A stretch of DNA of 64,000 bases from Euglena gracilis (taxonomy: Eukaryota): positions 13,930,387-13,994,386 of the forward strand of contig CP154954.1 in NCBI GenBank assembly GCA_039621445.1, read 5' to 3'. Below are positions 563 to 57,492 of the stretch, piece by piece; position 1 is the stretch's first letter; each line of letters starts with the position of its first letter. The position numbers and the translations under genes were made by a program. The notes under the pieces are model-generated. The model made no database searches, was not told the DNA's origin, and saw only the letters and a list, made by a program, of their open reading frames with translations.

Positions 563-803
563 TAACCCCCCCCCCCTAATAGAAGCACGGGGCCGCTACA
601 AGCGCACGTCCAAATAAAAGCGCACCCCCCCGCCGCCGAAGGCGGCGGTCCGCTATAAGCGCACCCCCCCCCCATTTTGATAGGATTTCTAAAGGAAATC
701 AACAAAAATCACTTAGGTAGGGTCCAAATAGAAGCGCACCCCCCGCCGCCGGAGGCGGCGGTCCCCTATAAGCGCACCCATGCTTCTATTGGGGGGGGGG
801 TTA
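563..803. mobile_element. TA-flanked MITE (AAGCGCACCC family)
   Basis: TA-ACCCCC..AATAGAAGCA / TGCTTCTATT..GGGGT-TA; second copy at 32818-33018. Confidence 0.85.
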
Positions 804-836
804 GAAGTCCAGCAAGTGGAACCCCACCTGTTATCA

Positions 837-977
837 ACACTTGCATTGTCGCTTGCCCCGGCCATAATCATCTGGGTGGTGTTCATGGACCTGATGACGT
901 CCTCCGTGGACCTGCTGCGGGGTACCACGCGGGATTCAATGGACGTCATCGTACAAAATATCCAACAGTTGCTCATG
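837..977 (+). CDS. Adenylyl cyclase exon (TM1)
   Basis: TLALSLAPAIIIWVVFMDLMTSSVDLLRGTTRDSMDVIVQNIQQLLM; the following CAGGTT (980-985) pairs with AACCTG (2228-2233). Ends are +/-2 nt. Confidence 0.75.
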
Positions 978-3900
978 TGCAGGTTGAGGCAGTCAAGAAG
1001 ATCCAACATTCAAATTTGGATACCGGTTTTCCTTGCATCGATTGTGAAAAAGCAACCAAATTGTCACACTGAACCAGCAAAATGGTCGAAATCGCCCAAG
1101 TTGGTAAGAAATGGCAGAGAAATGTGTCAGATTGTAAATAAAATTGTCCATTATTGCATTCTTTGAATCAAAGATGAAAAATGTCTTTGATTTGTTGGCA
1201 GGTAATTCTTACGCCGGACCCCTCCCTACCCCGGTGGGGTGGGTCCAGCCAGCCAGCACTTTTTTTCCTGCTCCCAGCTGATCTGTGGACCCTCCGGGGG
1301 GGGGGGGGATTGAGAATAATTTTTTTGCAGCCTGAATTTTTTTTCGGACCGAAGTGCCGAAACTTTTTGAAAGGTGTCAAAAGTACCAGAAGGGGCCATT
1401 TTGGTACGCTTGTTTTTCCCCCCACCTGAAGAGCTCATTGCCTGAAAAATGCATCCCAGCTGGATTCGGGCTTTTTTGCTTGTTTTCGGGTTCCAGCCAG
1501 GTCCAGCCCGGCAGCCGGGTTCAAACCATCTGGACCCCCCACCCCATAGGGGGGGGGGTCCAGCCAGCACCTTTTTCCAGCTGGACGGCTGGACCTTCCC
1601 CCTGAGAAATTCCCTTGCGAATGTGGGTCCTTGGATTGACTGATTTGTCAATCCAAGTCATGGAGAGGGAGGCAAATGCCCTTGCCTGCTTGTGCCTTGG
1701 ACACCCGTCTCATACATGGACCTGAACTCACACACTTACCCCTGAAATTGTAAACCGGAACAGATATTTACTGTGTTGAATTTTTTGTGTGTTATTTATC
1801 ATTGGCTTTTTCAAAAGTAAAATTCAGATTCTCAAACAGGCCTAAAACCATTGATTTTGATACGTTTTGGTCCAAATGGCCAAAACTACAGAAATTACAA
1901 AAGCAGCTGAAACGTTTTTAAAAATGGAAAACCCTTCTCAAGAATTTCAGTTTTCAACGTCAGGTCCAGCCCTTCCTTTTCCTGTTTTTTTTTTCTGACC
2001 TTTCAGTGAACAAGAACACCACCCTAGCCCACTCTCAGTTTTTTTTTTTTGCATTGAAAGAAAGGTTGACCCATAACGTTGACCTGCCTCTTGCCTCTAT
2101 GCGGATTTGGTTTCTCTGAAGGGAGAGGTGTCAAAACAGCTTGTAAGTATGTAAGTCTGTGAAATCCACAGGGCAACGTCGGGTGAACATATTTTTTTTA
2201 ATTCGGTTGGCCCACCTTTCCAACCTAAACCTGTTTGGTGAGCCAGGCGATCGAACGGTTCGACGCTCGGCTGACGGAGGGCGAGAAGGAGATGACGGAG
2301 GTGGTTCTCATGGTACAGGGCAGTGGGGTGCTGGGCTACGGCTGGGCACCTGCAGCGAACCGAATGCGGGGTTGGGTTCCCCTTGCACCCCAGAGCCAGA
2401 ATTCTTCAGGAGTGTCTTGGAAGCTCTTGCAAACTTTTTGTCCAGAAGATTCTGGAACACTGCTGAGTTTGTAAAAGTTACCCTTTCTGTGAGCAAGACA
2501 TCTGGCGGACACAGAAAAAGAAGGGGCTGTAGCTTTTTGGCGGGGACTGCAGTGTGCTAAAGGAGGTGCAAGGGAGCAGGTGTCCGGCGACGACCTGCGA
2601 CCCTCGCAATTTGATATCCCGCGGTTGGGCCTGCACACTTCTGTCCAACAAAGCTCATGGAACTCCCATTTTTGAAGCGCGAAGGCAAGTTCAAGACAGT
2701 GAGAACTGCGATGAAAATTGATTTACAGGTAAACCCCCAAAATAAGACCCAGGTCTTATCAGGGATTTGTGCTTATCTTAAAACGGATGGTTGCAGATAA
2801 CTAAGGATAACTTTGGATAAAAACATGACCCACTATGGATAACCACCAATCCTTGGTCTTATTTTTGGGTCTATTGCTGGAAAACTCCAGGGGGGTCTTA
2901 TTTTTTGGAGGTGTCTTATCTTTGGATTTTTTCTTGACCGAACCGAGACAGAAGAAATAGCAACATTTTTTTAGGTTCCCAAAAACGCCAAAAATTTTTC
3001 CCTCGGCGCTTCGCGCCATGTGTAAATTGGTATAAGCTGATATTTACCATGACTAAGCATTTCAAAAAGCTGAAAATATTTGAAATTCCGTCATTTTGTG
3101 ACTGGAATTAAGGCTTTTTTTTGGGAAAAAATTACCCTCCCTTCCGCTTTGTGCCGCCAAGGGGGGGGGGTCTTTTGGGTATCTTTTTTTTGGATTTTTG
3201 CCATCTTTGGCCGACTTTTCCCATTTCAGCTGGAAAATACTCTGTGGGGGAGGTCCATTAACAAACGTTAGCCTGACTCTGCACAACTGGATCCAGACAA
3301 CAGTTTCAGATGTGGAACATCTGGACTTGTGTGAGCTTTAGCCGTTTTTAAGCGGTGCTGAGCTCAATAAATCAAATGTGCAGCAATGGTTTAAACCCAG
3401 TAATTTAAAAATAAAAAAAAAATGGGAACGCCATGCCTCTAGGACCCCTCCCAGGAGACCCAATTACAAGAGGGACGGACCCCCGATTCCCAGGTTCCGC
3501 AGGATTTTTGTGAAATTCAGGGGACCGAAACATGTTTGATGTCAGAGTTAGGATTAAGTTTCGGGTTAGGTTTGGAGATAGGGAAGGTTCCGGTTAGGTT
3601 AGTTGCAGGAGTTTCAGGGCACAAATGCGGCCTAAATTTAGGCTAATTTTGGGCTAACTTTAGGCCTGACTGTGCCTGGAATTGTCCCAAAACGGGAAGG
3701 CAAACTCTAACCCCAGTCCTACTGCGAGGAATTACCTCAAGGATTACGCGAAACGGTGGTAAAGTGGTGACACCCGCGTAAATGCCCCATACAAGTGGGA
3801 CCCCACCCCAGGTCATGCCTCTGGGGAGGGGCCCAGAGGCATGGCTGCTCAATATGTACACACATATTTTCATATAACCCCCCCCCCAAATAATACCCCC

Positions 3901-6900
3901 CGGGGTATTATTTTTTTCGCCCGAAGTCCCGGCCCGAGGGGTCATAGCACCCCAAAATTTTGAAAATTTTCGAAGTCCCGTAGGAGCCAAAGTAGCGCCT
4001 TTTGACCCCCTTTGGGCTCATTTTTTGTAAACCCCCTCCCCATTTAGAACGACCCCCCTCTGATAACGAACCCCCATTTATAACGACCCATCCTGGAATT
4101 TCCACCAAAAAAAATATAACGACCCATGGTTGACAAAGAGCAGAAGCACGGGTAAGATGATGCATCTCATGTAAGTGCGTCCAGGCTCACCAGTGTTTAT
4201 TTGAAGTATGAGCGGATCGACCGCTGCTTGGACGGGGGCGTGGTCAGGGTGGGCGGAGGAGCAGAGCCTACGGAGGACCCTTGCACATCCTCATCAAACT
4301 TCTTTACAACGTCATCAACTGGGGTGTGAACCCAGGTGGATGGCATGGTGTATGGCTTGTATGGGTAAATTTCTGACAGACATAGCTGCTATAGGGAAAA
4401 CAGCAAAGACCCCCTCTGATAACGACCCCCCATTTATAACGACCCCCTCTGGATTTTCCACCAACTGAAAAGTCAGATAACGACCTGTCGTTATATTCAG
4501 GGGGGGGGGTTATTTTCTTCTGAAATTTGCCATTTTTTTTTAAGAGGTCAGACGATCCAGAAAAATCGATTTTTTTTTTCGTAATTCGTTGTCAGAGATT
4601 GTATTTTCAGGTCAAAATCCGGGCCTTCGGCCCGAAATCAGGGGGGGGGTTAACCTGGTCGCGAAGTCGGACCCGAGGGGGTATTATTTGGGAGGGGTAT
4701 TATTTTTGGGGGGGGTATTATTTGGGGGGAGGGTTTACATGAATAGATAATTACATATATGCATGTGTACATGTATGTGCACATGAATGTATATGCATAT
4801 GTACATATTTATGTGCATAAAAAGACACACACAACCTACATGTTTATAATAAAAAACACAAAATAAACACATACACACAATGATAATAACAGAATATAAG
4901 AATTAAATAAAAGCTTATAAATAAAAACGCCCCGTGCGCGGGGAGTTATTTTCAAAGTGTTCTTCATTGCTAGCAGAAAGGCGTTTTTTTTCACTTGGGT
5001 CCAGTAAAACGGGTGTAACTTGTGCAGGCGCAACGTTAGAATCAATAAGCGTTTTTTTCGTTTTGGGGACCAATAAAATTCTGCCCCCCCCCCCCCCGGG
5101 GGTGTCCACTAGGATTTCCACCAGCCAAATTTCAACTAGCTGCAGTCGATCCCCCCCCCCCGGGAGGGGGTCTGCAAAAACAGAAGCCTGCTGGGGTTAT
5201 CCAAAGTTCTGGTGTGAACCGATTCCCGCCCTGGGAGCTTTTCTAATATGGTCCCCCCTGCCCCTCCCAAATGTCCATTTTTGAAGTTTTTTGAAACAAT
5301 TTTTTTTAGAACAAAATCAGGCAAAAAAAACCTCAGTACAAACCCCATTTCCACCTTGACGCAGGAGAAAAAGTGTTGCCAGTTGGGGCAGCAGGTAATA
5401 GGTAGTAGGCAGTAGGTTTCAGTAGGTAGGTTGGGAGGGGGGGCAGATTTTGGAAATCATTTTTTGTACTATGCAATTTACTCTCCACATATTTTTATTT
5501 TCTTAACATTCAGAACTCATTTTTTAAAAAAAGGATTTAGGGTTTTTTTCTGTAAGACATCACTACCATCACTACCTCGATGCCCTTCGGGCGGCCAAAC
5601 AAGTCCAGAATTCGTGGGTCAGAGAGGCGAGTTTTTGGAAACATTGGCATTTTCAACCCGTGGGTTCCCCCAAACCCCCTCCCCCCCCCCCTGGAGCAGG
5701 GGCGTCCAGCAAGTTGCTTTTTTTCTAGTGGCTGGTAAGATGGCTAGCTAGTAAAGCCCCCCCCCCCAGGTCTTTAAGCAAAAGTCTCATCCCAAGGGGT
5801 GGGAGGACTGCAGGGGGGGGGGCTCCGCCATGGTAAGGTTTGCGATAAGAGCTCAGCAACCCCGTTCTTTCTCTCTGTGCTTTCTTTAGCTTTCTGTGCT
5901 GAAAGGGCTAGGGGTGCAGGCAGCCCCCTTCACTGGCCAGACCTTCACCATGATGCAAGGCCACCGCTTCTTCTCCCAGGTGTCCGTGATCGGCAGCTAC
6001 CTGGACCCCACAGAGGCCCAGGGGGACGGAGCCTCCATTTGTTTCTCATTTGAACATTGATTTTAACACGTGATGTACAAATTTTCGTTCTCTTGCAAGG
6101 AGTTCATTTCATTCAAGGTCAATCAAAAGGTGAGAGAATGCAGAAGATGCAGTTGTGGATGTGCAGGAGGATGGATGGATTGCCGCACAGATGAACAAAC
6201 TTTATTTTGTATATATTCTCATACCTCTCCGCTCGTGTAATTGACCCAAGTCAAGTGCTCATCTGATTGTGAATCAGCTCACGAAGAAGACATATCTGCA
6301 AAGAAAATATTCCTCGCGACGTATTTGTGATTCTGCAACTTTTTTTCGGGGGGGGGGGGTCCAGTTGGGCCCAACAGAGGTGGGAGTCAACTTTGGGGAG
6401 GGGGTCAAGTTGTGCTCAACAGCCCAGGGGGTCAATAACCGTGGTGGGTGCAATGACAGAGGGTGGGAGGTGCTGATTTCTGGTTGATGGGAATCAAAAT
6501 TGTTGAGATATTTGGCCTGGCGTTACAAACGGTCTGCTGACAAACGCTGCGGATTTCTTTTGCCAACAAGTATTTTTTAATTCATTTTCTGGATCCATTC
6601 TTCTGGCTTCCCCTGCCCCCAGTTTCTTTATCCCCACCTTCTGGGTGACGTGGGTGGCGTTCTATATGGATTTCCTCAACAACAGCTTCGGCACGCGCAC
6701 ACTGTACAGCACCCCATTGGTGATGGCCGTCAATGAGAAGAGTTCGACTTTAGGCTGGGCCCCCTCTGTGATCTTTTTCAATGGCTTGTGCGGTTTGTTT
6801 CTCAGCCAGAAGTTTGACAAAGTTTTGTCACCCATGCCATTTACAATTCTGTCCTTCACTTGGGAGTGGGCTTGGAACTTTATTCCTGCAATCCCCATCC

Positions 6901-9900
6901 AGACAATAGATCCCTGACAATGTGCAGTCCACCAAATGACCGGATACCAGCAAAAGCCTTCGCAGGAGTTTCAATGACCGACCCAAGAAATAAACCCCAC
7001 AACCTCACAAGCTGAATATCTGTTGTTTCCTTTGCAAACATTTTGGACATAAGAAAATGGTTGAAATACCATTTTTTGGATTTTTTTTTCGGAGAATCTT
7101 TTGGTATTGTAAATTTTCTGATTTTCTATGGACTCCCTGCAAAATTTTCTGCCAAAACTTTCCAGGAAACCAAGAAACCAAGAAAAACAGACCCAAGGAA
7201 CGAAACAGAAGCATTTGTCTCCACCATACTTCAGCTGAATGGCCCTGAAGACTGTTCTGGATCTTTTTGGATTGACTTCAGCTGGTGAGGGGACCTACCA
7301 GGCAACATTACGCAGGTGAATCAGATTACTGCAAAGCCGAGGTATTTGATTCAATCACAAGTTGCGCCTGCTGCTTATTTTGACAGGCCCTCCCCTGACC
7401 CAAATGCCACACATGCTGGATTACATGGGGCGGGACCATCCTTTAATTTTACTACCCCCCCCCCGCCATCTGGGAGGTTCTCACCCCCCCCCCCACAGGG
7501 CCATCATGAGAAGTTGTCACCTTGGGTCATGCGGGAAATCCACCACCCAGAAAATTGTTCCCAGAAAATTGTGCTCCAGTTTGTGCTTGCTGACTTGTCA
7601 GGTACTCACTTCCAGAGGTGGAATCCTTTTTTTGTCATTGTCTTCTTTCCCTTGATTGCCTTTGGTTCATTTTCGAAAAAAAAACGAAAATTGGCTGAAA
7701 ATGAAATGAAAAAAAAGGTGGCCGCCAAGAGGGTATCTCAAGTTTTTGCTGCAGAGATATCCTGATTTGTTTGCGTGGATGCAAAATTCACTCCTACCCC
7801 TCATTTTTGCCAAATGTTGATGATGATCTGCTACCGCCTGAGATAATATGTGTTTCTTTTGTGTTTTTCTGTACTGATTTTCTTTTGGCTTACGTAATTT
7901 TTAGAGTTGGAAATGGGGATGAAATGTGGATCTAACTAAAACCTAAGCGCCAGAAAACGAGGAGGAAGAAGAAATGAGAGGTGAAAAAATAATGCCATCA
8001 GGGCTGTTTTGAAATTATTTTCGGATCTAATAAGGTATTGATATTATGGAGGAATTGTTGTCAGTTTGGCTAAATAGAATGCACGTTTTTTGGGGAACAA
8101 TTGTCGCGGAATGCTGTGGATGAATTGCCGCTCAAGAAACGAAACGAAGCCCGCTTTTGTGTTCTTCGGACGGGCAGGGCAAAGTCAGTGTAGGGCCTCG
8201 ACCCAGGCTGGCGAAGTGGGTGGACGGCTGGCTGACCACCATGGCGTGGAACCGGTTCACGGGGCAGGTGGAGCTGGTCCTCCGGCAGAGCACAGGGGCC
8301 CCCAGGTGCCACCCTCCCTCCCGGATGGGTTCCCCTCTCCGACTTCCCCGAAAGTGCATTCGAAGTACGTCCTTTTTTGACACACTTATTTTACATTTAG
8401 ATCCATCAGGTACCCCCCCTGTGTGCGCTGTGGCTGTTTGTTTGGTGCCTTTTATCCCTTCTTTTGGCCTGGCGCTGTTTTTCGCCTCTGGTCTTTTTTT
8501 TTTGTCTCTGTACGTGGAGGTGGTAGGTACACCCCCCAGTCTATTAGGGACCCCCAAAAAATTGCTCTCTCCCCAAATAATAGCCTCCCTCGAATAATGG
8601 CCTCCTGGATTTTTGTGGGTATTCTGAGGGCAGTTCTGTAGGGACACTTTTCAACGCAAAAAAATCTAACCCTCCCCCCCCCCCAAGAACAGTCCCCCCC
8701 CCGGATATTTATAACCTTATTATGTTTTGTGGGGTTTAGATTGCAAAGATTCTTTCTCACATTGTTTCCCCTCGAACCACAAGATCTGAACCAACCCCCT
8801 CCCCCTAAATACCCCTCCCCCTGAAATTGTCATCTCGGGAAACTGTCACCTGAGCCCCGTGCTCGCTGACCTGTCACCATGGGCACCTGTCACCGACCTC
8901 TGTAGTCGCTGATTTGTTGACTTGGGAGTTTATATGTGGGTGGGGGAGTTTAACAAGAAGCTCCGTCCTATTTTTCAAAAAACGTGACGCCAAGATATGC
9001 ATTTCCGTATTTCCAGGTGCAGTCCGAGAAAGATTTTTTGGTTGGAATTGGTTTTTCTGGGTCTCTTCGGGGGCATATGGTTTGGGTCTCTGGGAAGAGG
9101 GGGAGTCAGAGCTTTGGCACCAAAACCTGTAGGTTTTCCTCCTTTGGGTAGAGTCTTGTATCTAACAAGCCACAATGACTGGAGCTGTGTGGTCAGTGGG
9201 GTAGATCCAGCCGTCGAATCACGCAACGTGCTTGATTCGGCCCGATTTTCACATATAGCCTGGTCGATTTGACGGTGTGTCTGGGTGCCAAACCACAATC
9301 CAGTGATGCGAATCCCGTGCGTCAGCACACAATATATCCTTTTTCAACCACAGTGTCGGGGTTCACAAGCCCTCCCTCCCAACCTAAGTGCCTGGAAGGG
9401 GTTTGGGAACTGCTCCAAAGTACAGGTATGATCCCGACGCAAAGCCGTTCCTTCCAACAGAACTAGTTTCCAAAGAGTGTCCCCAAGGCTGTCCCTGGGC
9501 CCAAATCGCGGCACAGAACGGGACGGGGATACAGCTGACCATCAACATTGGGGCCGCGACCATCAGCGATGAGCTGCGGAGCCAACTGAAGGGGTTCCCC
9601 GATGCCCAAGCGCCTCCGGCAGGTCACCTCCTCCTCCTCCTTCTCAATTCAAACCACGTGGTATTCAGGCCTTGGTCAAGAATCTCTTAACCAAAAAAGC
9701 CCAGCCAGCCAGCCAGCCAGCCAGCACCTGTATTCCAGCACGCTTTCCAGCCAGCCGGTTGACCCCCCGGAGCCTTTCAAAACCCGTGCTTAGCTGGCGC
9801 ACAAATACTTCCTGTTGTATGTCTGACCGGGTGTTTTATTAAAGAACACACACCTTTTTTTTTTATCTCGATGCCACACATGTGTAAACTCTTTTAACTT

Positions 9901-15782: not shown

Positions 15783-15845
<63 letters not shown>

Positions 15846-21800: not shown

Positions 21801-24800
21801 TCGGCAGCATTGCAGTGGGTGGTTTTGAAGTTGCGTCTGTTTCAGGGGATCCATCCATTAAATGTTATGTATTTCATGTTTACAGTGATCCCTCAATTTC
21901 CATAATTATCGACATTCATTTTATTCGTTGTCAACAACACTCGTATGCTTCTTTGTACCGGACCATCGATTCACGATCCTGTCGGCCTGCCCTGTGAACA
22001 TGTCACCGCCACGTTCACAGACAAAAATGGCCAGAGGCCAAAGTCACGCCAGGCCGGAAGAAGGGATGAATGGCACGAAGCAAACAGCCACAGTGCAGTG
22101 GCGTTCACTTCCACAGCTACCTACCCCCAGGGAGATTGTCACGCCAAGAACCTGTCAGGGTCCCTGGTCCATGACAGGAATTTGGAGGAAGTTGAGGACC
22201 AAGGGTCCTTGGTCCCGGCAAACTTCAAGGCCCAACCCCGGACATTTTCACGGTCCTGTCAGGTGACAGTTTCCCGAGGGGCATGCCAGATTCCACTGCC
22301 GTGCTGTGCCATGGCGATGTGGAACGCACCGGACCGGCTCCCCAGCCACGAGAGGGACGCCGTGGCGGCGTCGTTGGCGATGCAGGACGCCCAGGGGCTG
22401 TGCCGCGAAGGCAACTCGCGTGCGGGGTGTGGCGGACGGCAGGTGTGCAGTGTGGTGCGCGGTGCACGGTGGTGCGGGGTCTACCCCAGTCACATTGTGG
22501 GCCCCCAGTGTGGCCAGAAGCTGGCCCAGAAACCCATCTCCGGAACAAACTCTCCCCCCCACCCGCCGACCCATTTCTGTTTGCCCGTTTTGCCGGTCCC
22601 TGCCGCTTGCGTCATGGACCTGCATCGGTCGTGGAAGGACCGCGGGCTGCCGGTGCTGAAGTTCCGCGTGGGCATCCACACCGGGGAGTGCCTCGTGGGC
22701 AACTTCGGCCAGGGCCGGTCGCGTGCCTGTCTTCGGTGCCCTCTGTGCCCATTCCCGGTTTGTCAAATCACCCCCATTTCCATCGATGGTTGTATCGTGG
22801 AATGGCATCACCCTTGCTTCCACCCCATGAGCGAGCCTCAGGTGTTCGTGTTCCTCTAATTATGCTCCCCCCGGACCTCCCTAGAGTCAGGCTCCCCCAG
22901 GATTGCAATCTGACAACAGCCTGATTGGCCGGAACGTTGAGACCCTGACACCGAGGACCCGCTGTCGGGGAGGAGTGAAGTGAGCGTTCCTCAAAAACAT
23001 GACAGTTTTGCAGAAACCCGGAGCAGATGCAAGAATCAACCCGTGGACGCAATCACGTGATTGTCCCGAGCTGACAGGATACCACTCTTGCTGCCAATCT
23101 CGGTTTGCATTGGGACTGTTTCCCGCTCGTCTGGCCAACAGCTCCGGCCCTGGGGCCGGCTGCAGCTACCGCGTCAGCTACACCTGCCTGGGCGACGGGG
23201 TGGCCCAGCCCCCTCCTGATTGACCCACTGCTCACCCGCTGTGTGAAGTTGACCTCTGCAACCAAAATAATAGTGGTAAATGGCCAATTTGAATCCATCT
23301 GGCAATCAAGAATTGTCTCCCCCTCCATAAACCATGTAATTGATTCTGGGTCAGAATGAAAAAAAAACCCAAAATGATTATTTGTTGGAGATTTTTGGAG
23401 ATTTTTTTTGTGGCTGTACCCACCCTTTGCCCGACTAAATACCGACCACCCCCCCAGTCGGGGGTTGCAGGTCAGGGGGGTGCGTGACCCTACAGCTCGG
23501 CCCTGGGCGGCGGCCAGCTACGCGTCAGCTACGGGGAGGGGACTGAGCCCCTTTGTAAACAGGTGCATGCTCACCCGCTGTGTATTTGGACGCGTCTCAG
23601 ACCAACAACCATGTGTTCCAACCTCCGCCGACAATGCCGGTAACATAAAAAACGGGCAATGGGCCGGGCCACTCGCATAATGTGTTGGCTTTGGTTGGGG
23701 CCAAAAACACCACGCTTGGGCATGGGGGTGGTGAGGCTTCCACTTGCCCGCTAAATACCGACCTTACCCCCCAGTCACTTAGTCAGGCGGGGGTGTCATT
23801 GACCCTACGGGGATGCGCGGTGCGCGGGCGGGGTGGGCTTTCCGTGTACGCATACCCCAACACACCCCACCCCAACAGTGAACCCCACGGCCGTGATTTG
23901 TGCTTCAGAGTTCTCAATATTGGGTTCCACCTGGATGTAACACTTGTACCATACCCCACCAACCCGACCCCATCTCTGTGGGCACCTTGGTTGGGCAAAA
24001 ACCCGCTAACCGGCCCCCACGCAGCACGCCACCCCCCTCGCCATTAGCCATTTTTTGTGGTGGTGAGGGCCCAAATTTTAAGAGGGTGACACCAGCACGA
24101 AATTTTGGGTCGTTGGGTCCATTTTAAGTGTTTTGACAAAGTGGCGATTTTGAAAACTTATGGCCGTTTTAGTAGGGGTTTTGGAAACACACCCCGCTGG
24201 AACGCCTTGAAATTTTGAAAAAACAGAAAACAGCCGGAGAACACCTGGCCTCCGGAGCCCTGGTTGTTTGGCGATGCTACCGGACCCCCCCTCTGGAGGG
24301 GGGGTGACACGGTGTTGCAGGTGAAGAAGAGGCAACCGCTTAAGCAACCCGCGCATTTTTGAACATCTCAAGAGTCCCGATGTCCAGTGATGGGGGAGGT
24401 GAACACACAGCACTGCCCAAAAGATGCTACAATTTCTGGAAGGGATGTTTTAAGCGGTAAACCGCACAAAACTTGTTCTTGTGAAGGAGAGATGCTGGCC
24501 TTATGGAGGGGACTGGACTGGGAATAAACGTTTTACAAATGAGGTTAGCCGGTTTACCGAGCAAAATCGGGTTTACCGCGTAAAGAAGTGATGGTTCCTC
24601 AGGCGGAAACCCGCGCAGAAGGGTTTCAGAATGAGAACAGTTCGTGTTTGTGGATGACATGTGGAAGCGGGAAGTGGGAACGCGCAGAAACCTCCAGAAG
24701 TCGGCCATCACGTGAAGTTGTTAACCAACAAGTTTGGGGGAGAGGGAGGAGGACTTTGTGGCGTTATTGAACGATCGCAGTGGGCGGTTATCCGCCTACT

Positions 24801-27800
24801 TCGCTTTTGCTTTGCACGGGTTTCCGCGCAGATGTGGTTTGGGCGGAAACCCGCGTGGAGCTTGTTGCTGTCCTGGTGGGTTGTGTTTTGTGATGTTTTG
24901 GTGTCCCGAAGTGTCGGTGTCGGTGGTCGGTGTCGGCGGCACAATGTTTGGAAGTTGGGCGGGACAGGTTGAAAGGGAGCTGTGGCTGCTGCGCCGTGAC
25001 AGCAAGCACCCGAGCACGCGGAAACCCGCCTGGCATTTGAGCAGGAGGTGGACACCCTCCTCTGCAATTCGGACGCAGTAATGTTCCCCCTGGCCAGTGG
25101 TGAAGGGGTGGCTGCAGGGACAGCAGTGGAACGCACGTGTCAGTTGCCAGGCCGGGTGAGCTGCGGTAGAGAAGATGTTTTGTTACTGTCCCGAAAAACG
25201 GCCAAAAAACTGAGGTTGATTTCTCAGGAGGAACAAAAGCACCTCCCAGGGCCCTCCACTTGGAACCCAACGGTGTTGGTGGCCCAAAATCAGGGTTTGG
25301 GGAAGGCCGACGAAGAAGTGATTCAAGATAGGGACGGAGAAACGCCTGTTTCAGCAGCTGGTGGCAGCCATCGAAAAAATTTGGGTGGTTTTGGGAAGGA
25401 GTCCTCCAAGTTCTGAAAAATTCAAGGCCATTGTAATTGTTTTTTGAAAGAGTTTTACAGCATGTTTCCTTTGAAAAGCTGCAGTTTTTGCTGAAATTCA
25501 GACAGAATACCCAAACCACCTCTTTTTTTCTGGCTCTTCCTCCTTCGGGGTCGGCAACATGCAACGGTGGTCTCGACCGTCAGAAGCCGTGTGGGAGGGG
25601 GGGTAAACCACCAGAAGGCGGTCGTTCTCAACCAACGCCGGGTCGATGTTTGACCCGCTGCATTTGGCTTCCATCCATGTAACCACTCTCAACGCAAGTG
25701 TATCCGGTCCTTTTGGAAACCACCTCTGCTCTGAGTGCCCAAGTTTAAGGGCTGCCCATCTCTCCTTGTTTGGTCAAACCCTGCTGGTGCAATCTCCTCT
25801 CCCTGGTTTCCATAAACCTTCACCCCTCAAACTCACCACAACACGCCAGACACCATTCAGTTGCAAACTGCCTGGCAGCCTGGCAACAAAGTCTGTCGTC
25901 CGTGTACTCCGCAAAGATTCACCCCTTTGACTGGTGTCACAAGTAGGGTTGCAAAACTTTGCCAACAAACCGGCAGACTTCATTTCTAGGGTGGCTTCCT
26001 GGCTGGTCTTTTTGGTTTGTGTTGGTTTGCGTGGATTGTGGTGGTGGGTGGTTTGAGGTTTGTTTGGGGCTTTGGAACAAATGCTGTGCTTTTTCTGCCC
26101 ACCCTTAACCCGGCCACACGGATTCCCGCTTACACCCAGTCGCCTTACACTCGCCACGTATACACACACAGAAAACGGATTCCCTCCTACCAATCATCAA
26201 CTGTTTGTGTCATTGTACGTGGTAATCCGCGTACCATTCTTTGTTTTCACTTTTAGGTGGTAATCCGCGTACAAGTGCATTGTGCGCGGATATCCGCCTA
26301 AACACTTAACTCTGTTGTCTGTCACCTCTTCTTTCGTTTCACGCGGTTTTCCGCGCACACTTGTATTATCCATTTGTTTCTCAGATACTGTTATTAACAT
26401 AAACCAACACACAGCCCCCATGACACACCCATTCAAAGTCAGTGTTTTTCAACTCATTTCAAACAGTTCTAGTACACTCCCAAATCACACAATTCACACG
26501 CAATCGTAAATCGGTTAAGCGGAATACCGCGCAAAACCATTTTCATAAAATTTTGGCTCAAAGCCGCCACACACCCCTCTCAGCCCAAATCTTTGTGCCC
26601 TTTTAGGGGGGTTTCAAAACAGCCAAAAAACGCCCAAAAAACGCAAAAATCGGTTGGGCAATTCGCGCCGCCTAAGTTAGTCACTGGCCGACCCCCCCCC
26701 CCTGGGTGGGTGGCTGGTTTTTCAGAGTAACTGACTGGTTTTGGCCTGGACACCCTCCCCCCCCCGGGGGGGGGTTCGCAAAAAAACCACTAAAGTGACC
26801 CGGCGCCGAAGGTGCCGGACAAAGTTTTGGGCTTTTTTTCCCATGTTTTTTGGTCAAACTTCCTTTGGATTCTAGAGTGGCCGACCCCCCCCCCCCCCAG
26901 GGGGTGGTGACTGACTGGTTTCCCGGAAAAAGTGACTGGCTGGTTTTTCGAAGAGTGGAATGACCCCCCGGGGATCGGTAAAACATTGCATGTTCCTTAC
27001 CTGAGGAAGGGCGCTGCCTCCCAACCTGTCCGCTCGCCTGGAGGCACTCAATAAAAAGTTTGGGGCCAGGGTGCTTCCAGCTGGAGAGCCTCTTCAAAGA
27101 CTTGTCCCATATTGTACCGTCCCTCTCCTGGCCAGACAGCAGGAAATGCACTTGGAAAAACAACCCAATGAAAGATTTGTTTCTGCACAAGATAATTTCC
27201 TGTCAATCGCACATTGTTGCATTATGGGTATCCCAGGGCAGTGCTCATGTGAATATGTGAATGAAAGGAGGCTGGTTATGGGAGCAGGCTTTTGCTTAGT
27301 CGTGTGCCCAGCCCACGTGGGGGGGTGCTAGGGGCAGGCACCCCATCCGACCCCCCCCCCGGGGGGGTCGAGTTTTTGGGGGGTGCCTGCCCATAGCAGG
27401 CACCCCCTCCGACCCCGGCGCCGAAGGGCCCGGAAAATGCCATTTTCAATGAAAAATTTATGGGCCCCCTGGACCCCCCGGAGGGTGTGCCTGCTAGGGG
27501 CAGGCACCATATAGCCCCCCTCCCCCCCCCCCCGGTCGGCCTGAATGGGAGCATAGCCAGTGTCATTTTGCGCTTTACCGCTTACCGCAGAGCCACTACT
27601 ACCCCCCCCCCCCCTATGTCCAATGGCCACCCCCCGGTCAGAGGACACCTTTTCGGAGGTTTGACCAAATTTTTGGTCCCGGCGTGAAGCGCCGGGACCA
27701 AAAATTTTGCCCAAAAATTGGCCAAAGGTTACCGGTCATTGGACATAGGGGGGGGGTAGGGGCTCTGCGTTACCCCCTTTTTGGGACACAGTCTTGTAAG

Positions 27801-30800
27801 TTGTCCGAAACTTTGTGTGGCGACATATGTGGAGAGTATCCCCGGCGGGGAATCACACACCAAAATCCATTTTTCACCAGTCTCCATGTATTTTTTTTTG
27901 GAAAGGACTTCATTATTGTCATCTTTTTTTTTTAAGAAGAAAACGCCCTGCCGAGGACGTTCATCTGCGTCTCCCACTCCACGTACGAGGCGTGCCAGCA
28001 CGACTTCCATTTCCGGAGGCTGGCGAAGGTCACGGTGCCTGGCAAGGCCACCCAGGGACCAGTGGGACTTTTTTCTTCAGCAGACAACGATGTATATTTC
28101 GTTTTGTAGTCAATTTTATCTTGGACTCTTATATTCCAGAAAGGGGTACTTTTTTTTAAGAAGATTTGACTCCGGGGGGGGGGGTCCAGCCAGCCAGCAG
28201 CTTTTTTCCAGCCTTCTCCCGCATCGACGAGTTTTTTCCATCTTTTATTATATTTTTCAGCCTTCCTTCGGGTGGCTGGATGGGCTTTCAGAGATGCAAA
28301 ACCGGCCAAAAATGGGCGAAAGTGGGTCAGAAAAGGGCTGGGGCGTATTTGGGGTTTAAAACTGACTGGTTTTTCAAAAAAAGTGGCTGACTGGCTTTTG
28401 GAAGTGTGGAAGTAACCCCCTCCCCCCTCCCCTGTTGGTCGATAAAATTCTAAACCACACAAAATTTGGATGGTGAGGGAGGGGGAGTTGGTGCAGTTGG
28501 TTTTCTGGGTTGTGCTACAAAGGCGTTCGTTTGCTCAGCCCTGCCAGAGAGGTACTTCCGGTGTACGAGGTGCTGTGCGAGGCGGGATGCGTCGAGACAC
28601 GGACCCCCAAGGCCGCAGACCTTCCTGGAACAGTCGGCATCGACGTGCAGAGGGAGCCTGTGAAGCCGGCCAATCAGTGTCGAGTCTGGCTTGTGGTCCC
28701 CCAATTTGAACTCCGGACTATTCTCTCAACCTGCATGGGGTCCAACGTTTTTGTTCATCCAGTGCACATTCCCAAGTCAGATCAGTGACCAACCTCTGAA
28801 GTTGCAATGCCGATGTTGCAGAGTGTGGGTTCAGGGTGCCCACCCCTCCCCCTCCCGGGAAACTGTCGCAGAAGGTGGGAGTGGCCAACCAGTCATGAGA
28901 GGAAGTTTCCAGGGTCCTGGCACTGGCCGACCTGTCGAGTTAACAGCTTCCTCGGGGAGGGGGGTGTTAGGCAGGTGCTTATTCTGCTGCTGTTCTCTGG
29001 TTTCGTTTCACAAACTGTTTTTTTTTGTTTGATGGAATGCGGCTTAATGCGTGCGATCGGCGGACACTCATTGCCTCCGCCCAAGGAGCGGCGGTACTCC
29101 CCGGCGCAGCGGGTCAGCGTGGCGGACGGCCTGCTGTTGCGCGGCCCCACCAAGACTGGGAACAAACCGGCGGACCAGTCCCTGAATGGTGTCCCCCCTT
29201 CAAGCCTGCCCATGCGAAGCACGGAGGGTGAATGGTGTGGCTTTCCCCACTGAATCTGCTGCATTTTGAAGTTTTTTGGGGGGTGAGAAATGATTCATTA
29301 ATCCCACCGTCATCGAAGGGAGATACAAACAGAAAAGTCGCGTGGTTGGCAATGATACTTTTCAGGTTTTTCAAAAGATAATCATTTCTTCGATGCAAAA
29401 ATCCGAGTTATGGCATTCCCCTGTTATCATTTTAGGAGTATTAAAGGAGGTGGTTGTATGGCAAGTGTGTACATATGTAAGTCTGTGTGGAAATTATGCA
29501 AATACATGGCAGCCTCGGTCTATTTGCCCCCCCCCCCCGGGGGGGGCAAGCAGAGTGATCAATGGGGGGGGGGTCGTGTGGAGGGACCCGTGTCCGACCT
29601 TCGGGGAAATTTGGGTCTAGGGTTAGGTTTCCAACCAGATACCCAGAGGATGTACATTTTTAGGAATTTAGGCAGACGTCAGGCCGCATGTGGGAGCCAG
29701 TGGACCGAATTCAGGGGAATTCTTTTTGGTAAAACATGTATTCAAAAATCTTCTGAAAATGGGACCTGATTGCCGGCCTAACTTCGTCCTAAAATGGACC
29801 AGTTTTCGGGGCAATCCCAACCCTAACCCTATGCCAACAATTTAGGGGGAATCCTCCTTGATTCCACTGCCGGTTTCCCTGAAACCGCGTGTTTCCCAGC
29901 GCCGTGGGGCCAAAACAAAAACAGAAATTTGGATCTGGGTCCCCCATACCAGGGGGGGGGGGACTCAAACAGGAAAAATTGCTGTGGAAAAATTCAGAAC
30001 AAATTTTTGTTTAGGATTATCCCCACAAATTTTGCGAAATATAAATTTTCGGCACTCCGTCAATTCAAAATAAAAGAATTTTTTGCCTTATTTTTTGGAG
30101 TTTTTTTTTGCAATTTTTTTTTTGGAGTTGTGACAACCTCGAATTTTGGTGTGATTTATCTTGTGTTTCCCTGAAAAGTTGGTTCACAAGATTTTTTTCG
30201 TTCAGAATCTTCCCTGGGGGCCCGCTTTTCAGCGAGCAATTAGTAAATAATAAATAAGCGAGCGTCCAATAATTTTTCCCGTCGGCATTTGTTCCTGTTA
30301 TTTTCCCCCCGGTATACCCCCCCTGATCATTCTAATTTCCCCCCCAGGTGAGAAAGTAGAGTGAGGCTGCCAGATATCCGTATACATATACACACATACA
30401 TGCATATACAGAATAACATATGCATACATAAACCCCACCCCCCACTTATACCCCCCCCCCCCTTATAACCCCCCCCCCCCCCTTCTAACCCCCCCCCCCC
30501 ACTTATAAACCCCCCCCCCCTCGGGCCGACCAGCCAAACCGGATCGATCCTATAACCCCCCCCCCCTGGGGAAGAAAAATGGAAACCGCCGGGGACGATT
30601 TTTTTTTTCAGCCGCAAACCACTGAAAAACTGATTTTTTGGCATTTTTTTGAGACCGACCATCATCAAAATGCCATTTTTGACCAAGTTTGCCAAACATT
30701 GCCAATTTTAGGGGGTTTCGAGGGCATTTTTTGGGGTCGGATTTTGACCAACAATTCCGTATCCTATAAAACCCTCCCACCTATAAACCCCCCCCTCGGG

Positions 30801-31657
30801 CCGACCAACTAAACCGGATCCTATAAACCCCGGGCAGTTTATAAGTGGGGGGAGGGGTTTACACATGCATCAGGGGGGGGGAAATGCGCTGCGCAGTTTT
30901 GCGCATTTTTGTCAATTTTTAAAAAAATGCGCATTTTTGTGCATTTTTTTGCGCATTTTTCCCATTTTCCCACTTTTTTTTTTACACTTTTTGGAGGCAT
31001 TTTGTCCATATTGTCCAAATTGTCAAAAACAAACTTGACATTGGTGTTATTCAACACCGTTCTTCAACACCAATCAAATCACATACTCACCGAATTTTGC
31101 CCACGTTCAAGTAACCCATTTCTATAACCAACGAACCCATTTCCGCACTTTTTTTTCCACCCAAGGGACCTGCCTCAAGAAAAAAAACCCTTGGGTGATG
31201 AGGTGTGGGTACTCATCCAATGATGATGAGGACACTAGGGTTTTCAGAGACCCCACATCGAATCCTACTCCCTTTGTCACAAGTAAGGGGCAACCATGGC
31301 TGACATTGTTGGTTATGGTGAACAGAGAGTGACGCCTTGCTCGTGCATTTTTTTTTTATATACCAAAAATGCCTTTATTTCAGCTGTTTTTGATGACTTT
31401 GGTTTAATTTTGGGCTTATTGTTGGAAATTTTTCTGAGTCCTTTTTCTCTTATGAATGTACAAACTCAGCGCATTTTTGCGCATTTTTTTTTTCCGGGGG
31501 CCGTCCAGAGCATCCCCCCCCCTGCATACATGCACGCATACATACACACAAACATGCACACATGCATGCATACATGCGTACATTCGTATATGCATACAAC
31601 AGACAGACAGACAGGCAGACAGATAGACAAACAGACAGACAGGCAGGCAGGCAGAAC

Positions 31658-31689
<32 letters not shown>

Positions 31690-33475
31690 TACACGCATAC
31701 GTACATGTAGCATATTGCACTCACAGACACATTCAAAAACAAGCACACACATTGCCATGCATTTGGATAATATGTTACGCACCATCATACACTTTTATTT
31801 TCCCTTGTGGGAAGCATGCCTATTTTTTTTTTGACAGGGCAATTCTGCTCGAAATATTTATTTCCTCGCGTAACAAGTTTTTTTTTTAAAAGCGTCATGG
31901 CACGAACTCGCGAAACGTTGCGCACGATTTCGGTAATTTCATCTCTGAGCCATGTGCTTTCCTTCGCTGGGCTTGAGCAACCAACACCAGGTAGGAGTTG
32001 TCCCCGGCCTGCCCCCGGCCAGGTGACCTATCACTGGACACTTGTGGACCGCGCGGTGCTCCTGCAGTCAGCCGAGGGGTACGAGGAGGCGTATGCCGCC
32101 ATGGTGGTTGGCGGCCAGTCTGCTGTGCCGTGCCATGCCGTGCTGTGCCGGCTGGTTTTAATGTGTGCTCTCGCCCAGGTGTCGGATGTTGTGTGTTTCG
32201 GAACTGGATGAACTGGGCCAAATTGTGCCATTCCGATGCCTGATGGAATGCTCTGATGAGATGTTCAGTTGAGACAGCACCCAGGCGACCTAACTTGCAC
32301 TCAATCTGTTTTGCATGCCATTGCGCATGCGCTCAGCATTCACTGTCCTGCAAACCCACCCTTTTGGTTCTTTAGCCCTGTGGCAACTGTTCCTTGTTTT
32401 GTCCAGTTTTAAATCCAATTCCGAAATTCCTTGAAATAGGACAAAACACCCGTGCTCAGTCCCACGTTTTTGTACCCCTCAATATATTTCTGTCCCTCCT
32501 GTGCAAGCCAGGTGAAACTTCTGCCCTTTGTGTTGCTTTGTGAAGTGCTGTGGCATGTATAGGGTTCCTGCCAAGTCATCCAGGGGGTGGACTCTACATC
32601 TACACTGTTCCCCCCCTTGTCTAAGCCCCCCCTCCCCGGTGATGACCCATCTTTTTAAAGGTCATCTTCTCGCGGAGGCTTTTTTTGTGTGCTTTTTTAG
32701 AAAATTTTCTCGAGAGTTTGAAAATTATTGAAACCTCTGAAGCCTGATATGGTGAGACATTGTTGATTTTTGCATCCAAATGCCTGTGAGTGCAACAGTG
32801 GACCTCCAAAATAAGGGTAACCCCCCCCCTAATAGAAGCACGGGGCCGCTACAAGCGCAGGGTCCAAATAAAAGCGCACCCCCCCCCACCGCCGAAGGCG
32901 GCGGTCTGCTACAAGCGCACCCCCCATTTTGATAGGATTTCTAAAGGAAATCAACAAAAATCGCGCAGGTACGGCCCAAATAGAAGCGCACCCGTGCTTC
33001 AATTGGGGGGGGGGGTTAATTTTTCCTTTTTGGTGTGAAGCGCCGGATTTTTTTTTGCAAGTCAAAATTTCCCCCTTGTCCAAGCACCAGCCCCCTGATG
33101 CTTACCAATGTTTTCCAGTGCTTAGACAAGGGGGGGGGTATGCTCCCGATTCTCCGGCACTCCGTGTTTTCAGCTTCTCCCAACTCTGAAATAGCCCGGC
33201 TTGCACGTCTCATTTCCAAGGCACGGCGGTCTGCCGGGGACCAACAACGGGCGCGGCAGCTGCTGGCGGCCAACCCGCTGCTGGACCCGCCGGACAAGAC
33301 GTGGGCCGCCCTGGCTGCCCAGCCAGGGCTTAATGGGAATCCCCGCAACCCTGTGGGTGGTGGGTGGGGGGGGTCGACCCCCCCACCAGGCCTTCCCGCA
33401 CAGCCCTGCGCCCAGCTGGAGCACGCGGAGGCCGGCCGGCCATGGGACGGCGTGTTCTACTTCAAAGAGAAGTGA
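837..33475 (+). CDS. Spliced gene (5' end lies upstream of the window): receptor-type class III adenylyl cyclase, TM-extracellular region-TM-HAMP-cyclase; about 27+ exons, listed separately
   Basis: Exons join in frame to give LTIMFADIEGFS...TEYFEAMCSNIVGRNGTIDKFIGDCIMAMWNAP...FRVGIHTGECLVGNFGCSYRVSYTCLGDGVNLSARLEALNKKFGT...WDGVFYFKEK*. There are two hydrophobic helices (837-887 and 14827-14892) and a HAMP-like segment. Exon structure at 6760-8206 and 29150-32016 is unresolved. Confidence 0.93.
2238..2339 (+). CDS. Adenylyl cyclase exon
   Basis: VSQAIERFDARLTEGEKEMTEVVLMVQGSGVLGY; downstream 12-bp stem CTGGGCACCTGC/GCAGGTGTCCGG (with G-U pairs). Confidence 0.72.
2592..2627 (+). CDS. Adenylyl cyclase micro-exon (probable)
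   Basis: DLRPSQFDIPRL between two paired intron ends; CCTGCAC (2630) pairs with GTGCAGG (5914). Confidence 0.55.
3875..4737. mobile_element. TA-flanked MITE (AAATAA-ACCCC family) with nested element 4028-4512
   Basis: C-run/G-run TIRs; homologous to 44066-45041. Confidence 0.85.
5926..6015 (+). CDS. Adenylyl cyclase exon
   Basis: PFTGQTFTMMQGHRFFSQVSVIGSYLDPTE; 5' end +/-3 nt; 3' intron 6016-6620 is N3-CAG...CTG-N5|A. Confidence 0.75.
6621..6752 (+). CDS. Adenylyl cyclase exon
   Basis: SFFIPTFWVTWVAFYMDFLNNSFGTRTLYSTPLVMAVNEKSSTL; 3' end uncertain. Confidence 0.75.
7289..7341 (+). CDS. Adenylyl cyclase exon (tentative)
   Basis: GDLPGNITQVNQITAKP joins in frame to the 8207 exon via GT(7342)..AG(8206); 5' end uncertain. 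Confidence 0.4.
8207..8289 (+). CDS. Adenylyl cyclase exon
   Basis: LAKWVDGWLTTMAWNRFTGQVELVLRQ; 3' intron 8290-9502 has stem CAGGGGC/GTCCCTG. Confidence 0.8.
9503..9603 (+). CDS. Adenylyl cyclase exon
   Basis: (K)IAAQNGTGIQLTINIGAATISDELRSQLKGFPD; both junctions in frame under the N3/N5 rule. Confidence 0.82.
9977..10023 (+). CDS. Adenylyl cyclase exon
   Basis: DRLVLFFRQPHGYMI(A); flanking stems CAAGC/GCTTG and CGGCG/CGCCG. Confidence 0.82.
11511..11618 (+). CDS. Adenylyl cyclase exon
   Basis: ASHGKYFSHSDVDARYINPLLHPPNISAYSLWTCL(Q); high GC3, in frame at both ends. Confidence 0.85.
11622..11949. mobile_element. MITE with 8-bp TSD that forms nonconventional intron 11619-11954 (introner-like)
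   Basis: Imperfect TIR CAAGGCTTCACTTA / TAAGTGATTCCATG; flanks CTGCAGAG / CTGTAGAG; related sequence at about 21490-21598 and about 61330-61455. Confidence 0.85.
11955..12007 (+). CDS. Adenylyl cyclase exon
   Basis: SNDALIAFACQQLYGKY(Q); 3' stem CAGGGGAAG/CTTCCTCTG. Confidence 0.85.
12266..12417. mobile_element. hAT-like MITE
   Basis: CAGGGATTT...AAATCCCCTG; perfect TSD TCTCCACT. Confidence 0.88.
12622..12707 (+). CDS. Adenylyl cyclase exon
   Basis: SWTAIPEMNQELVLAGQRYWVATGYSSG; 3' stem CGGGCCGG/CCGGCCCG. Confidence 0.85.
13875..14279. mobile_element. TA-flanked MITE
   Basis: TAAAACCCCCCAATTAGAAGCCCCC / GGGGGCTTTTAATTGGGGGGTTTTA. Confidence 0.85.
14321..14430 (+). CDS. Adenylyl cyclase exon
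   Basis: TLQCTVLMLKCRASVMGSIDASNAYVDQSVSDKKGV(T); in frame with neighbours. Confidence 0.85.
14826..14921 (+). CDS. Adenylyl cyclase exon (TM2)
   Basis: FVILGVVSAVAVLLPLSVGLWLATRLYMLAR(G); 13-bp 3' stem CAGGGCCTGTCCC/GGGGCGGGCCCTG. Confidence 0.87.
15022..15389. mobile_element. hAT-like MITE (CAGGGCGGTC family)
   Basis: TIR CAGGGCGGTC/GACCGCCCTG; TSD GGCAGCCC/GGCAGGCC; relatives at 38148-38369, about 33733-34340 and about 43314-43866. Confidence 0.88.
15476..15628 (+). CDS. Adenylyl cyclase exon (HAMP and linker)
   Basis: MDRIAQLQFATTAPPPTVFRELHRFQASFVQMERGLQAFGKFVPHGVVKV(L): HAMP-like E-L..F..M..GL pattern followed by FGKFVP. Confidence 0.9.
15784..15949. repeat. (TG)n/(TGCG)n microsatellite
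   Basis: Directly visible. Confidence 0.97.
18042..19764. mobile_element. C-run GGGAAACTGTCA-family element containing nested insertions
   Basis: TIR CCCCCCGGGAAACT(A/G)TCA / TGACAGTTTCCCGGGGGG; uninterrupted copy at about 34345-34512; fragments near 8820, 16000, 22130, 28850 and 38450. Confidence 0.8.
18102..19529. mobile_element. hAT-like non-autonomous element with (CCGACCAGGG)n subterminal arrays
   Basis: TIR CAGGCACCTA(C/T)GG; perfect TSD CTCCCGGG; empty site visible in the copy at about 34385-34420. Confidence 0.9.
19812..20228. mobile_element. hAT-like MITE
   Basis: TIR CAGGGTTCGATATAA; perfect TSD GTCTACCC. Confidence 0.92.
20505..20544 (+). CDS. Adenylyl cyclase exon
   Basis: IAGQMKANDEMHP; both junctions N3/N5 and in frame. 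Confidence 0.8.
21208..21321 (+). CDS. Adenylyl cyclase exon (catalytic, first metal-binding Asp)
   Basis: RMLTIMFADIEGFSTICENEFPAVLVSVCTEYFEAMCS. Confidence 0.93.
21752..21802 (+). CDS. Adenylyl cyclase exon (catalytic, Lys and second Asp)
   Basis: NIVGRNGTIDKFIGDCI. Confidence 0.93.
22311..22388 (+). CDS. Adenylyl cyclase exon (catalytic)
   Basis: MAMWNAPDRLPSHERDAVAASLAMQD. Confidence 0.92.
22608..22706 (+). CDS. Adenylyl cyclase exon (catalytic)
   Basis: CVMDLHRSWKDRGLPVLKFRVGIHTGECLVGNF. Confidence 0.93.
23158..23202 (+). CDS. Adenylyl cyclase exon (catalytic)
   Basis: GCSYRVSYTCLGDGV; upstream intron has a perfect 10-bp stem CCAGGGCCGG/CCGGCCCTGG. Confidence 0.92.
27023..27063 (+). 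CDS. Adenylyl cyclase exon (catalytic Asn/Arg)
   Basis: NLSARLEALNKKF(G). Confidence 0.92.
27285..27543. mobile_element. hAT-like MITE (GGCAC/GTGCC family)
   Basis: CAGGC...GCCTG; TSD TATGGGAG/AATGGGAG; related to 35171-35453. Confidence 0.8.
27600..27758. mobile_element. TA-flanked MITE (TATGTCCAA family)
   Basis: TIR TA-Cn-TATGTCCAATG; copies at 47403-47733 and 48548-48899, partial copy near 41986. Confidence 0.88.
27956..28049 (+). CDS. Adenylyl cyclase exon
   Basis: TFICVSHSTYEACQHDFHFRRLAKVTVPGKA. Confidence 0.9.
28549..28667 (+). CDS. Adenylyl cyclase exon
   Basis: EVLPVYEVLCEAGCVETRTPKAADLPGTVGIDVQREPVK(P); 3' stem CAATcAGTGTC/GACACTcATTG. Confidence 0.85.
29079..29150 (+). CDS. 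Adenylyl cyclase exon
   Basis: PKERRYSPAQRVSVADGLLLRGP; 3' end uncertain. Confidence 0.68.
30429..30861. mobile_element. TA-flanked MITE (TATAAACCCC family)
   Basis: TAAACCCCACCCCCACTTATA / TATAAGTGGGGGGAGGGGTTTA. Confidence 0.85.
31598..31690. repeat. (ACAG)n microsatellite
   Basis: Directly visible. Confidence 0.93.
32017..32112 (+). CDS. Adenylyl cyclase exon
   Basis: GQVTYHWTLVDRAVLLQSAEGYEEAYAAMVVG; 14-bp 3' stem CAGTCTGCTGTGCC/GGCACGGCGGTCTG. Confidence 0.82.
32818..33018. mobile_element. TA-flanked MITE nested in a TTGTCTAAG-family element (about 32607-33140)
   Basis: The empty site AAGGGTAATTTT in the homologous copy at 38-49 shows the TA duplication; further host copies at 1-210 and about 39822-40215. 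Confidence 0.88.
33239..33320 (+). CDS. Adenylyl cyclase exon
   Basis: DQQRARQLLAANPLLDPPDKTWAALAA(Q). Confidence 0.85.
33324..33408. mobile_element. 85-bp MITE derivative with 8-bp TSD that forms intron 33321-33413 (introner-like)
   Basis: [17 protein letters not shown]; flanks TGCCCAGC / CGCCCAGC; similar to an intergenic element starting at 42986. Confidence 0.82.
33414..33475 (+). CDS. Adenylyl cyclase last exon
   Basis: LEHAEAGRPWDGVFYFKEK*, with TGA at 33473-33475. Confidence 0.87.
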
Positions 33476-57272: not shown

Positions 57273-57305
<33 letters not shown>

Positions 57306-57455: not shown

Positions 57456-57487
<32 letters not shown>

Positions 57488-57492
57488 TTTTT

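Follow-up and report, generated by a model that had tools for sequence, protein, structure and literature searches.

The question raised by this locus, which lies in a 64,000-nucleotide stretch of Euglena gracilis DNA (the window), was whether one gene could be spliced throughout by introns which lack conventional borders and whose own ends pair with each other. Introns of this nonconventional class have been known from euglenids since the 1990s. We put at about 93% the probability that the locus is a nuclear cyclase gene, either of Euglena gracilis itself or of a very close relative, with 27 introns of which the 26 with fixed borders (all but intron 25) belong to the known nonconventional class, none being conventional, and are spliced at the junctions given in Table 1. 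In mRNA the exon junctions fall at the positions which the original prediction, made from the sequence alone, had given. The two ends of each intron pair mutually, and the helix which they form leaves a spacer of 3 nt at the 5' border and one of 5 or 6 nt at the 3' border.

The junctions were placed principally with P0001, a 591-residue protein (EukProt entry EG_transcript_7248) which was found with the translation of one exon; the EG_transcript naming is that used for the Euglena gracilis transcriptome (PMC6366073). The 21 exon segments to which P0001 mapped lie in colinear order between 885 and 23172 on the + strand, and 584 of its 591 residues (98.8%) were identical to the final model with zero gaps. 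At each P0001 junction every intron position which would yield the same protein was enumerated. This fixed 20 introns, 14 of them (6016 to 22707) at the coordinates already predicted and six which the prediction had not contained (introns 1, 2, 3, 5, 6 and 18). Six predicted introns lie past the end of P0001, and five of these are backed by paralogue colinearity and RNA contig pieces, the remaining one (intron 24) being partly supported. The introns listed in the earlier gene model all have the ends described for them, but the intervals 837–6015, 6621–8289, 21752–22388 and 29079–32112, which it had treated as single exons, contain seven further introns. Two of the three protein searches (P0002 and P0003) returned only translations of genomic contigs and no transcripts, and yielded nothing on the C-terminal introns.

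The resulting model reads as a single open frame, 850 codons long, which runs without internal stop through 28 exons of 40–197 nt, separated by 27 introns of 93–4876 nt, in a window of mixed composition (G+C of 43–61% across the gene). As read from the sequence, the product is a predicted single-pass membrane class III adenylate cyclase of approximately 850 residues. The catalytic domain (PF00211) was detected in P0001 at 44.2 bits against a Pfam cut-off of 21.9 (profile positions 9–117 of 183); P0001 terminates within the domain, the remainder of which is encoded by exons 23158–28667. Paralogues P0005 and P0020 scored 79.5 and 83.4 bits with the same profile, and the C-terminal motifs of the gene product are conserved with respect to the paralogues. 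Nucleotidyl cyclase III proteins are described as an expanded family in E. gracilis (PMC6366073), and a tblastn search with ten paralogues (P0004, P0005, P0006, P0007, P0009, P0011, P0012, P0020, P0035 and P0131) identified no second cyclase gene on either strand of the window. At the 5' end, homology to the paralogues begins at 837 with a hydrophobic N-terminal stretch, the first in-frame ATG is at 780 and the ATG of P0001 is at 885. The true protein start is uncertain because the ATG at 780 lies just beyond an interspersed repeat. This repeat (568–741) adjoins the first coding exon on its upstream side and recurs in intron 26 at 32821–32993 (78–93% identity).

Sequencing reads were also compared with the part of the gene between 9450 and 29450. 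Run X7 is on record as RNA, X1 and X2 were guessed to be RNA, and X6 is probably DNA, its library type not being on record; the RNA-like runs contained 5–6% of the words. Contigs of X1 and X2 covered 9503–9603, 11510–11617 and 28549–28665 as pieces of longer contigs, and the distances of exon differences to the ends of such pieces placed ends at 9503, 14921, 22388, 22608 and 27023. In both X1 and X2 the depth of the bin 9450–10116 was that of the contig multiplied by 148 exon bases. A loose contig end at 23157 carried the end of exon 22608–22706, and the X1 piece at 28549 started at contig position 133, which matches the 38 and 94 bases of the two upstream exons in the model. Raw reads of X7 joined 15607 to 21212 (4 reads) and 21317 to 21767 (2 reads). 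These were among 15 joints listed out of 794, most of which were repeat artefacts inside introns 15 and 21, and among the joints listed there were no back-joints at intron ends.

Paralogues for the C-terminal third of the gene were obtained by a profile-free search with P0001 and were compared with it by tblastn and multiple alignment. P0020, P0005, P0007 and P0009 aligned without gaps across the junctions of introns 20–23, 26 and 27, each of which is spanned by a conserved block. At intron 21 this alignment was accompanied by an RNA contig piece beginning at 27023, while the unspliced alignment at intron 27 contained a gap of 31 residues, equivalent to the 93-nt intron. Introns 24 and 25 sit in a linker whose length varies among the paralogues. 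RNA pieces end at 28665, next to intron 24, for which a nearby in-frame GC-AG pair (28669–29085) is also possible. The exon after 29079 was estimated at approximately 72 bases in both X1 and X2 (depth multiplied by bin length and divided by contig depth). The X1 and X2 contigs extend 204 bases beyond 28665 (2 + 72 + 130), 130 being the length of 31983–32112. The estimate of 72 bases would put the 5' end of intron 25 near 29151, in conflict with the best-paired solution at 29196–31982, which came from a scan of in-frame, in-register pairs; no good pairing partner was found for a 5' end near 29151. An acceptor at 29124 was rejected by eye for lack of pairing.

Table 1. Coding span, catalytic domain and introns in the window. 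Listed or unlisted refers to the original prediction; N5, five-nucleotide tail before the 3' border; code, the published terminal signature (PMC12501133); non-slidable, borders which cannot be shifted without changing the mRNA.
Feature	Positions	Strand	Status	Terminal triplets	Remarks
Coding span	780..33475	+			28 exons, 2553 nt, 850 codons; only stop 33473–33475
Class III cyclase catalytic domain (PF00211) exons	21208..28667	+			split by eight introns
Intron 1	977..2239	+	unlisted	CAG/CTG	GT..GT borders; 6-nt tail; within code; fixed by P0001
Intron 2	2340..2591	+	unlisted	TGG/CCG	first pair U-G; 11-bp stem; outside code
Intron 3	2633..5921	+	unlisted	CAC/GTG	third pair flipped; non-slidable; outside code
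Intron 4	6016..6620	+	listed	CAG/CTG	N5; non-slidable
Intron 5	6753..7303	+	unlisted	TGG/CTA	6-nt tail; non-slidable; outside code
Intron 6	7382..8204	+	unlisted	AGG/CCT	first pair A-U; 6-nt tail; outside code
Intron 7	8290..9502	+	listed	CAG/CTG	N5; non-slidable; RNA contig pieces begin at 9503
Intron 8	9604..9976	+	listed	CAA/TTG	third pair A-U; outside code; RNA contig piece 9503–9603 stops at 5' border
Intron 9	10024..11510	+	listed	CGG/CCG	N5
Intron 10	11619..11954	+	listed	CAA/ATG	third-pair mismatch; eight equivalent positions; longer stem further inside
Intron 11	12008..12621	+	listed	CAG/CTG	N5
Intron 12	12708..14320	+	listed	CGG/CCG	N5
Intron 13	14431..14825	+	listed	CGG/CCG	N5
Intron 14	14922..15475	+	listed	CAG/CTG	N5; 13-bp stem; non-slidable
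Intron 15	15629..20504	+	listed	CAG/CTG	N5; 4876 nt; full of high-copy repeats and microsatellites
Intron 16	20545..21207	+	listed	CAG/CTG	N5; preceded by 40-nt exon
Intron 17	21322..21751	+	listed	CTG/CAG	6-nt tail; non-slidable
Intron 18	21803..22310	+	unlisted	AGC/GCT	at spacers 3/5; outside code; CAG/CTG one base further out on each side
Intron 19	22389..22607	+	listed	CAG/CTG	N5; sole intron followed by a pyrimidine (T)
Intron 20	22707..23157	+	listed	CAG/CTG	N5; RNA contig loose end at 23157 bears end of previous exon
Intron 21	23203..27022	+	listed	CAG/CTG	6-nt tail; non-slidable; 3820 nt; high-copy repeats
Intron 22	27064..27955	+	listed	CAG/CTG	N5; begins GG, ends AG
Intron 23	28050..28548	+	listed	CAG/CTG	N5; non-slidable; RNA contig pieces begin at 28549
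Intron 24	28668..29078	+	listed	CAA/TTG	outside code; in variable linker; supported on 5' side only
Intron 25	29196..31982	+	unlisted, inferred		candidate borders; best end-paired in-frame solution; 10-bp stem, −30.6 kcal/mol
Intron 26	32113..33238	+	listed	CAG/CTG	N5; gap-free paralogue alignment
Intron 27	33321..33413	+	listed	CAG/CTG	N5; 93 nt; minimum-energy fold closes ends

Introns 15 and 21 are occupied by microsatellites and interspersed repeats, which in X6 reached a depth of up to approximately 499,000 compared with approximately 45 in unique sequence. The long introns are long because repeats have been inserted in them, their ends remaining unchanged. Elsewhere in the window, positions 1–204 recur at 39998–40202, a stop-free frame of 538 codons (50260–51876, + strand, approximately 60% G+C) gave no Pfam match, and no Pfam family was found in eight long open frames between 34 and 64 kb. 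The only Rfam match was a borderline tRNA at 55683–55767 on the + strand, which scored 30.6 bits (gathering score 29; E 0.022). A+T-rich pentanucleotide satellites (TATAC/TATTG-like) were observed at 56000–57600 and 36630–36840, with G+C falling to 28% at 56–58 kb.

The register which had been claimed for the introns was borne out. In all 18 predicted introns with a five-nucleotide tail, C is found at +4 and G at −6, and the next exon starts with a purine in 17 of them, the exception being intron 19. The stem triplets vary as had been described, CGG/CCG replacing CAG/CTG in introns 9, 12 and 13 and CAA/TTG being found in introns 8 and 24. Introns 17 and 21 pair solely with the six-nucleotide tail which had been assigned to them; when the wrong tail length was imposed (5 instead of 6 nt or the reverse) the stem was reduced to 0 bp in all 20 predicted introns. 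The stem lengths had to be corrected. The paired ends are real, but the uninterrupted stems measure 2–13 bp (G-U allowed) and not 5–14 bp as predicted, with introns 10, 26 and 24 having only 2, 3 and 4 bp respectively, in each case resuming past a one-base mismatch.

Across the 26 introns with fixed borders the first base is always a purine and the last base is a pyrimidine in 21. The next exon begins with a purine after 25 of the 26, the upstream exon ends in a pyrimidine in 19, and C occupies the third base of the downstream exon in 14. Fifteen introns can be slid without change to the mRNA while 11 cannot. When the ends of the 26 introns were re-paired with those of other introns the mean stem fell from 6.6 bp for cognate ends to 2.6 bp and the duplex energy changed from −21.8 to −15.4 kcal/mol, and in 5000 permutations no re-pairing was as good as the cognate ends. 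The pairing is therefore intron-specific and more than a shared motif. The minimum-energy folds of the whole introns 27, 19 and 2 all closed the ends; the z-scores of these folds were −3.8 for intron 27, +0.92 for intron 19 (no better than shuffles) and −4.5 for intron 2.

The origin of the transcripts had to be considered, since seven of the 591 residues of P0001 do not match the model and the runs do not match the window at several exon bases; the transcripts therefore came from another strain, another haplotype or a near-identical copy. Exon bases 9513, 11997, 12657, 14913, 22345, 22367, 22625 and 27032 differed from the window in all runs carrying the species label. The transcripts could in principle derive from an intronless or intron-poor second copy (a retrocopy or haplotype), with the copy in the window itself neither expressed nor spliced. 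Such a source would fit the 98.8% rather than complete identity of P0001, and also the spliced joints in X6. In this run, in which the introns are covered evenly at a depth of approximately 35–50, we also observed one contig each for the joints 15607 to 21212 (depth 23.8) and 21317 to 21767 (depth 35.5), which may represent a second form of the DNA that lacks three adjacent introns, or else carry-over of cDNA. However, the copy in the window keeps an open frame over 28 exons together with intron ends which fit the rule, neither of which is expected of a dead copy. Record 23 of X6 runs unbroken through exon 22311–22388 and both flanking introns, so that no fully processed copy is evident there, and exon differences of the RNA contigs (e.g., 9513 and 22345) are shared with X6 contigs which bear intron sequence. 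We consider a second-copy origin of this kind very unlikely, and the reading that the window's own gene is spliced at the junctions of Table 1 is preferred.

A spliceosomal origin of the same introns was judged to be less probable still. Here the true junctions would be nearby GT/GC-AG or AT-AC sites and the register a by-product of G+C-rich sequence. Nine introns do open with the dinucleotide GT or GC and one closes with AG, and each of the six predicted C-terminal introns has in-frame GT/GC-AG pairs no more than 30 nt away. Except at intron 24, however, these C-terminal alternatives add or delete residues in the gap-free paralogue blocks, and at the 20 introns fixed by P0001 there was no GT/GC-AG option among the protein-compatible positions. 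None of the 26 introns could be slid to GT/GC-AG borders and, with respect to AT-AC borders, none of the 26 begins with AT. The register itself fitted far too often for a by-product: the strict rule was satisfied by 13 of the 20 P0001-fixed introns, whereas 2000 decoy sets averaged 0.21 and never exceeded 3; three pairs in register were found in all 20, the decoy sets averaging 5.8 and reaching at most 13; and a scan of spacer lengths peaked at 3/5 with 15 of the 20. The refutation proposed with the original prediction, namely transcripts using GT/GC-AG sites or no transcripts at all, failed, as transcripts exist and the 20 junctions fixed by P0001 are free of such sites. The least probable alternative, a pseudogene whose exon joins are chance open frames, could draw only on the length and repeat content of the long introns and on the seven residues at which P0001 differs, and stands against a single 850-codon frame without internal stop, a gap-free match to a transcript-derived protein, RNA contigs and reads on the exons and conserved C-terminal motifs, so that we regard it as extremely improbable.

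With the gene in the window taken as expressed and spliced as in Table 1, the assignment of its introns to the euglenid nonconventional class, which had also been predicted, holds by the published description of the class: GT/GC-AG borders in 0 of 26, ends which pair, and removal from the transcript. As with conventional U2-type GT/GC-AG introns, they interrupt coding sequence and are precisely removed from mRNA; unlike U2-type introns they have no GT/GC-AG at any equivalent position and their ends pair mutually. The stem-loop which joins the splice sites, the pyrimidine|purine borders and the C at the third exon base are features shared with the tubulin-gene model of Milanowski et al. 2014 (PMC3935182), which, as presented there, rests on few genes, whereas here one gene contains 26 such introns and none that is conventional. 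Gao et al. 2024 (PMC11170887) reported for E. gracilis a consensus of CCAGG at +3 to +7 and CCTG at −9 to −6, with terminal pairing genome-wide in 16,151 nonconventional introns, mostly at −2 to −10 kcal/mol over 10-nt ends. The present introns resemble that set in consensus, terminal pairing and lengths of up to several kb, but 12,186 of its 28,337 introns are GT/GC-AG compared with 0 of 26 in this gene. Transposon-derived, MITE-like introners (PMC11282704) likewise have terminal inverted repeats and borders with short direct repeats (15 introns of the present 26 are slidable); in contrast to introners, no transposase is linked to the present introns.

The exact register, the tail of 5–6 nt, the compensation at the middle base and the purine which starts the exon had already been defined experimentally in 2025 (PMC12501133). 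By knock-in mutagenesis and genome editing, Nomura et al. established the required signature 5'-N3CDG-/-CH'GN5-6|R, in which the donor spacer must be 3 nt while the 5-nt acceptor spacer tolerates one added base, and CGG/CCG, CGG/CTG and CTG/CAG are functional (PMC12501133). According to the same report the exon preferably begins with a purine, with T tolerated in one of two introns tested, pairing past the triplet is needed, and splicing is lost when a single base of CAG or CTG is changed, compensation having been tested there at the middle position alone. The report also gives 71.8% of E. agilis introns as nonconventional, with a comparable share in E. gracilis, and finds that 61.2% of the nonconventional introns of E. 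agilis fit the pattern and 38.8% lie outside it. The introns of the cyclase gene share with this code the 3-nt donor and 5- or 6-nt acceptor spacers, the triplet variants, the exon purine, the additional pairing and the sliding border repeats. The code was matched by 18 of 26 introns, each at exactly one position, compared with the 61.2% in E. agilis.

The other eight introns (2, 3, 5, 6, 8, 10, 18 and 24) fall outside the written code by the triplets shown in Table 1. Seven of the eight were placed by P0001; the geometry is retained although the letters differ. They do not contradict the published mutagenesis, in which the compensated position described was the middle one alone (PMC12501133), and they fit both the remark in the original prediction that pairing outweighs sequence and the 38.8% of E. 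agilis introns which that paper places outside the pattern. That one machinery removes these eight and the other introns alike is a tentative reading which we hold to be somewhat less probable than its opposite.

As had been stated with the original prediction, the excision machinery is not identified; the literature to 2025, as represented by PMC12501133 and PMC11282704, calls the trans-acting factors unknown, and a search of papers from 2025–2026 listed none that names them in its title or in the opening of its abstract. From what has been published, a machinery which is probably not the spliceosome would recognise the terminal helix and would cut at fixed distances from it. An analogy to tRNA and archaeal introns, which are cut by an endonuclease that reads structure, is drawn from PMC3935182 and lies in cut sites apparently set by distance from a helix and not by border sequence, a likeness of logic and not of membership, the introns here reaching 4.9 kb. 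Nonconventional excision would follow conventional splicing, and the excised intron would be released as a circle. Both circular products and removal after conventional introns were described by Guminska et al. 2018 and 2021, as cited in PMC11282704 and PMC12501133.

The gene provides a worked example, with 26 nonconventional introns, none conventional, and micro-exons as short as 40 nt. Natural test cases for what the code leaves open are present too, namely triplets in which a first- or third-position change is compensated, and intron 18, in which CAG/CTG is found one base nearer each border than usual. If the out-of-code introns are indeed spliced by the same machinery, any terminal helix would serve as the reference from whose end that machinery measures 3 nt and 5–6 nt, and compensated first- and third-position changes would be tolerated. 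The machinery would then require no C-G closing pair and no G at +6, and CDG/CH'G would be the commonest solution and not a requirement. A DNA form without three adjacent introns, if confirmed, would bear on intron loss or gain.
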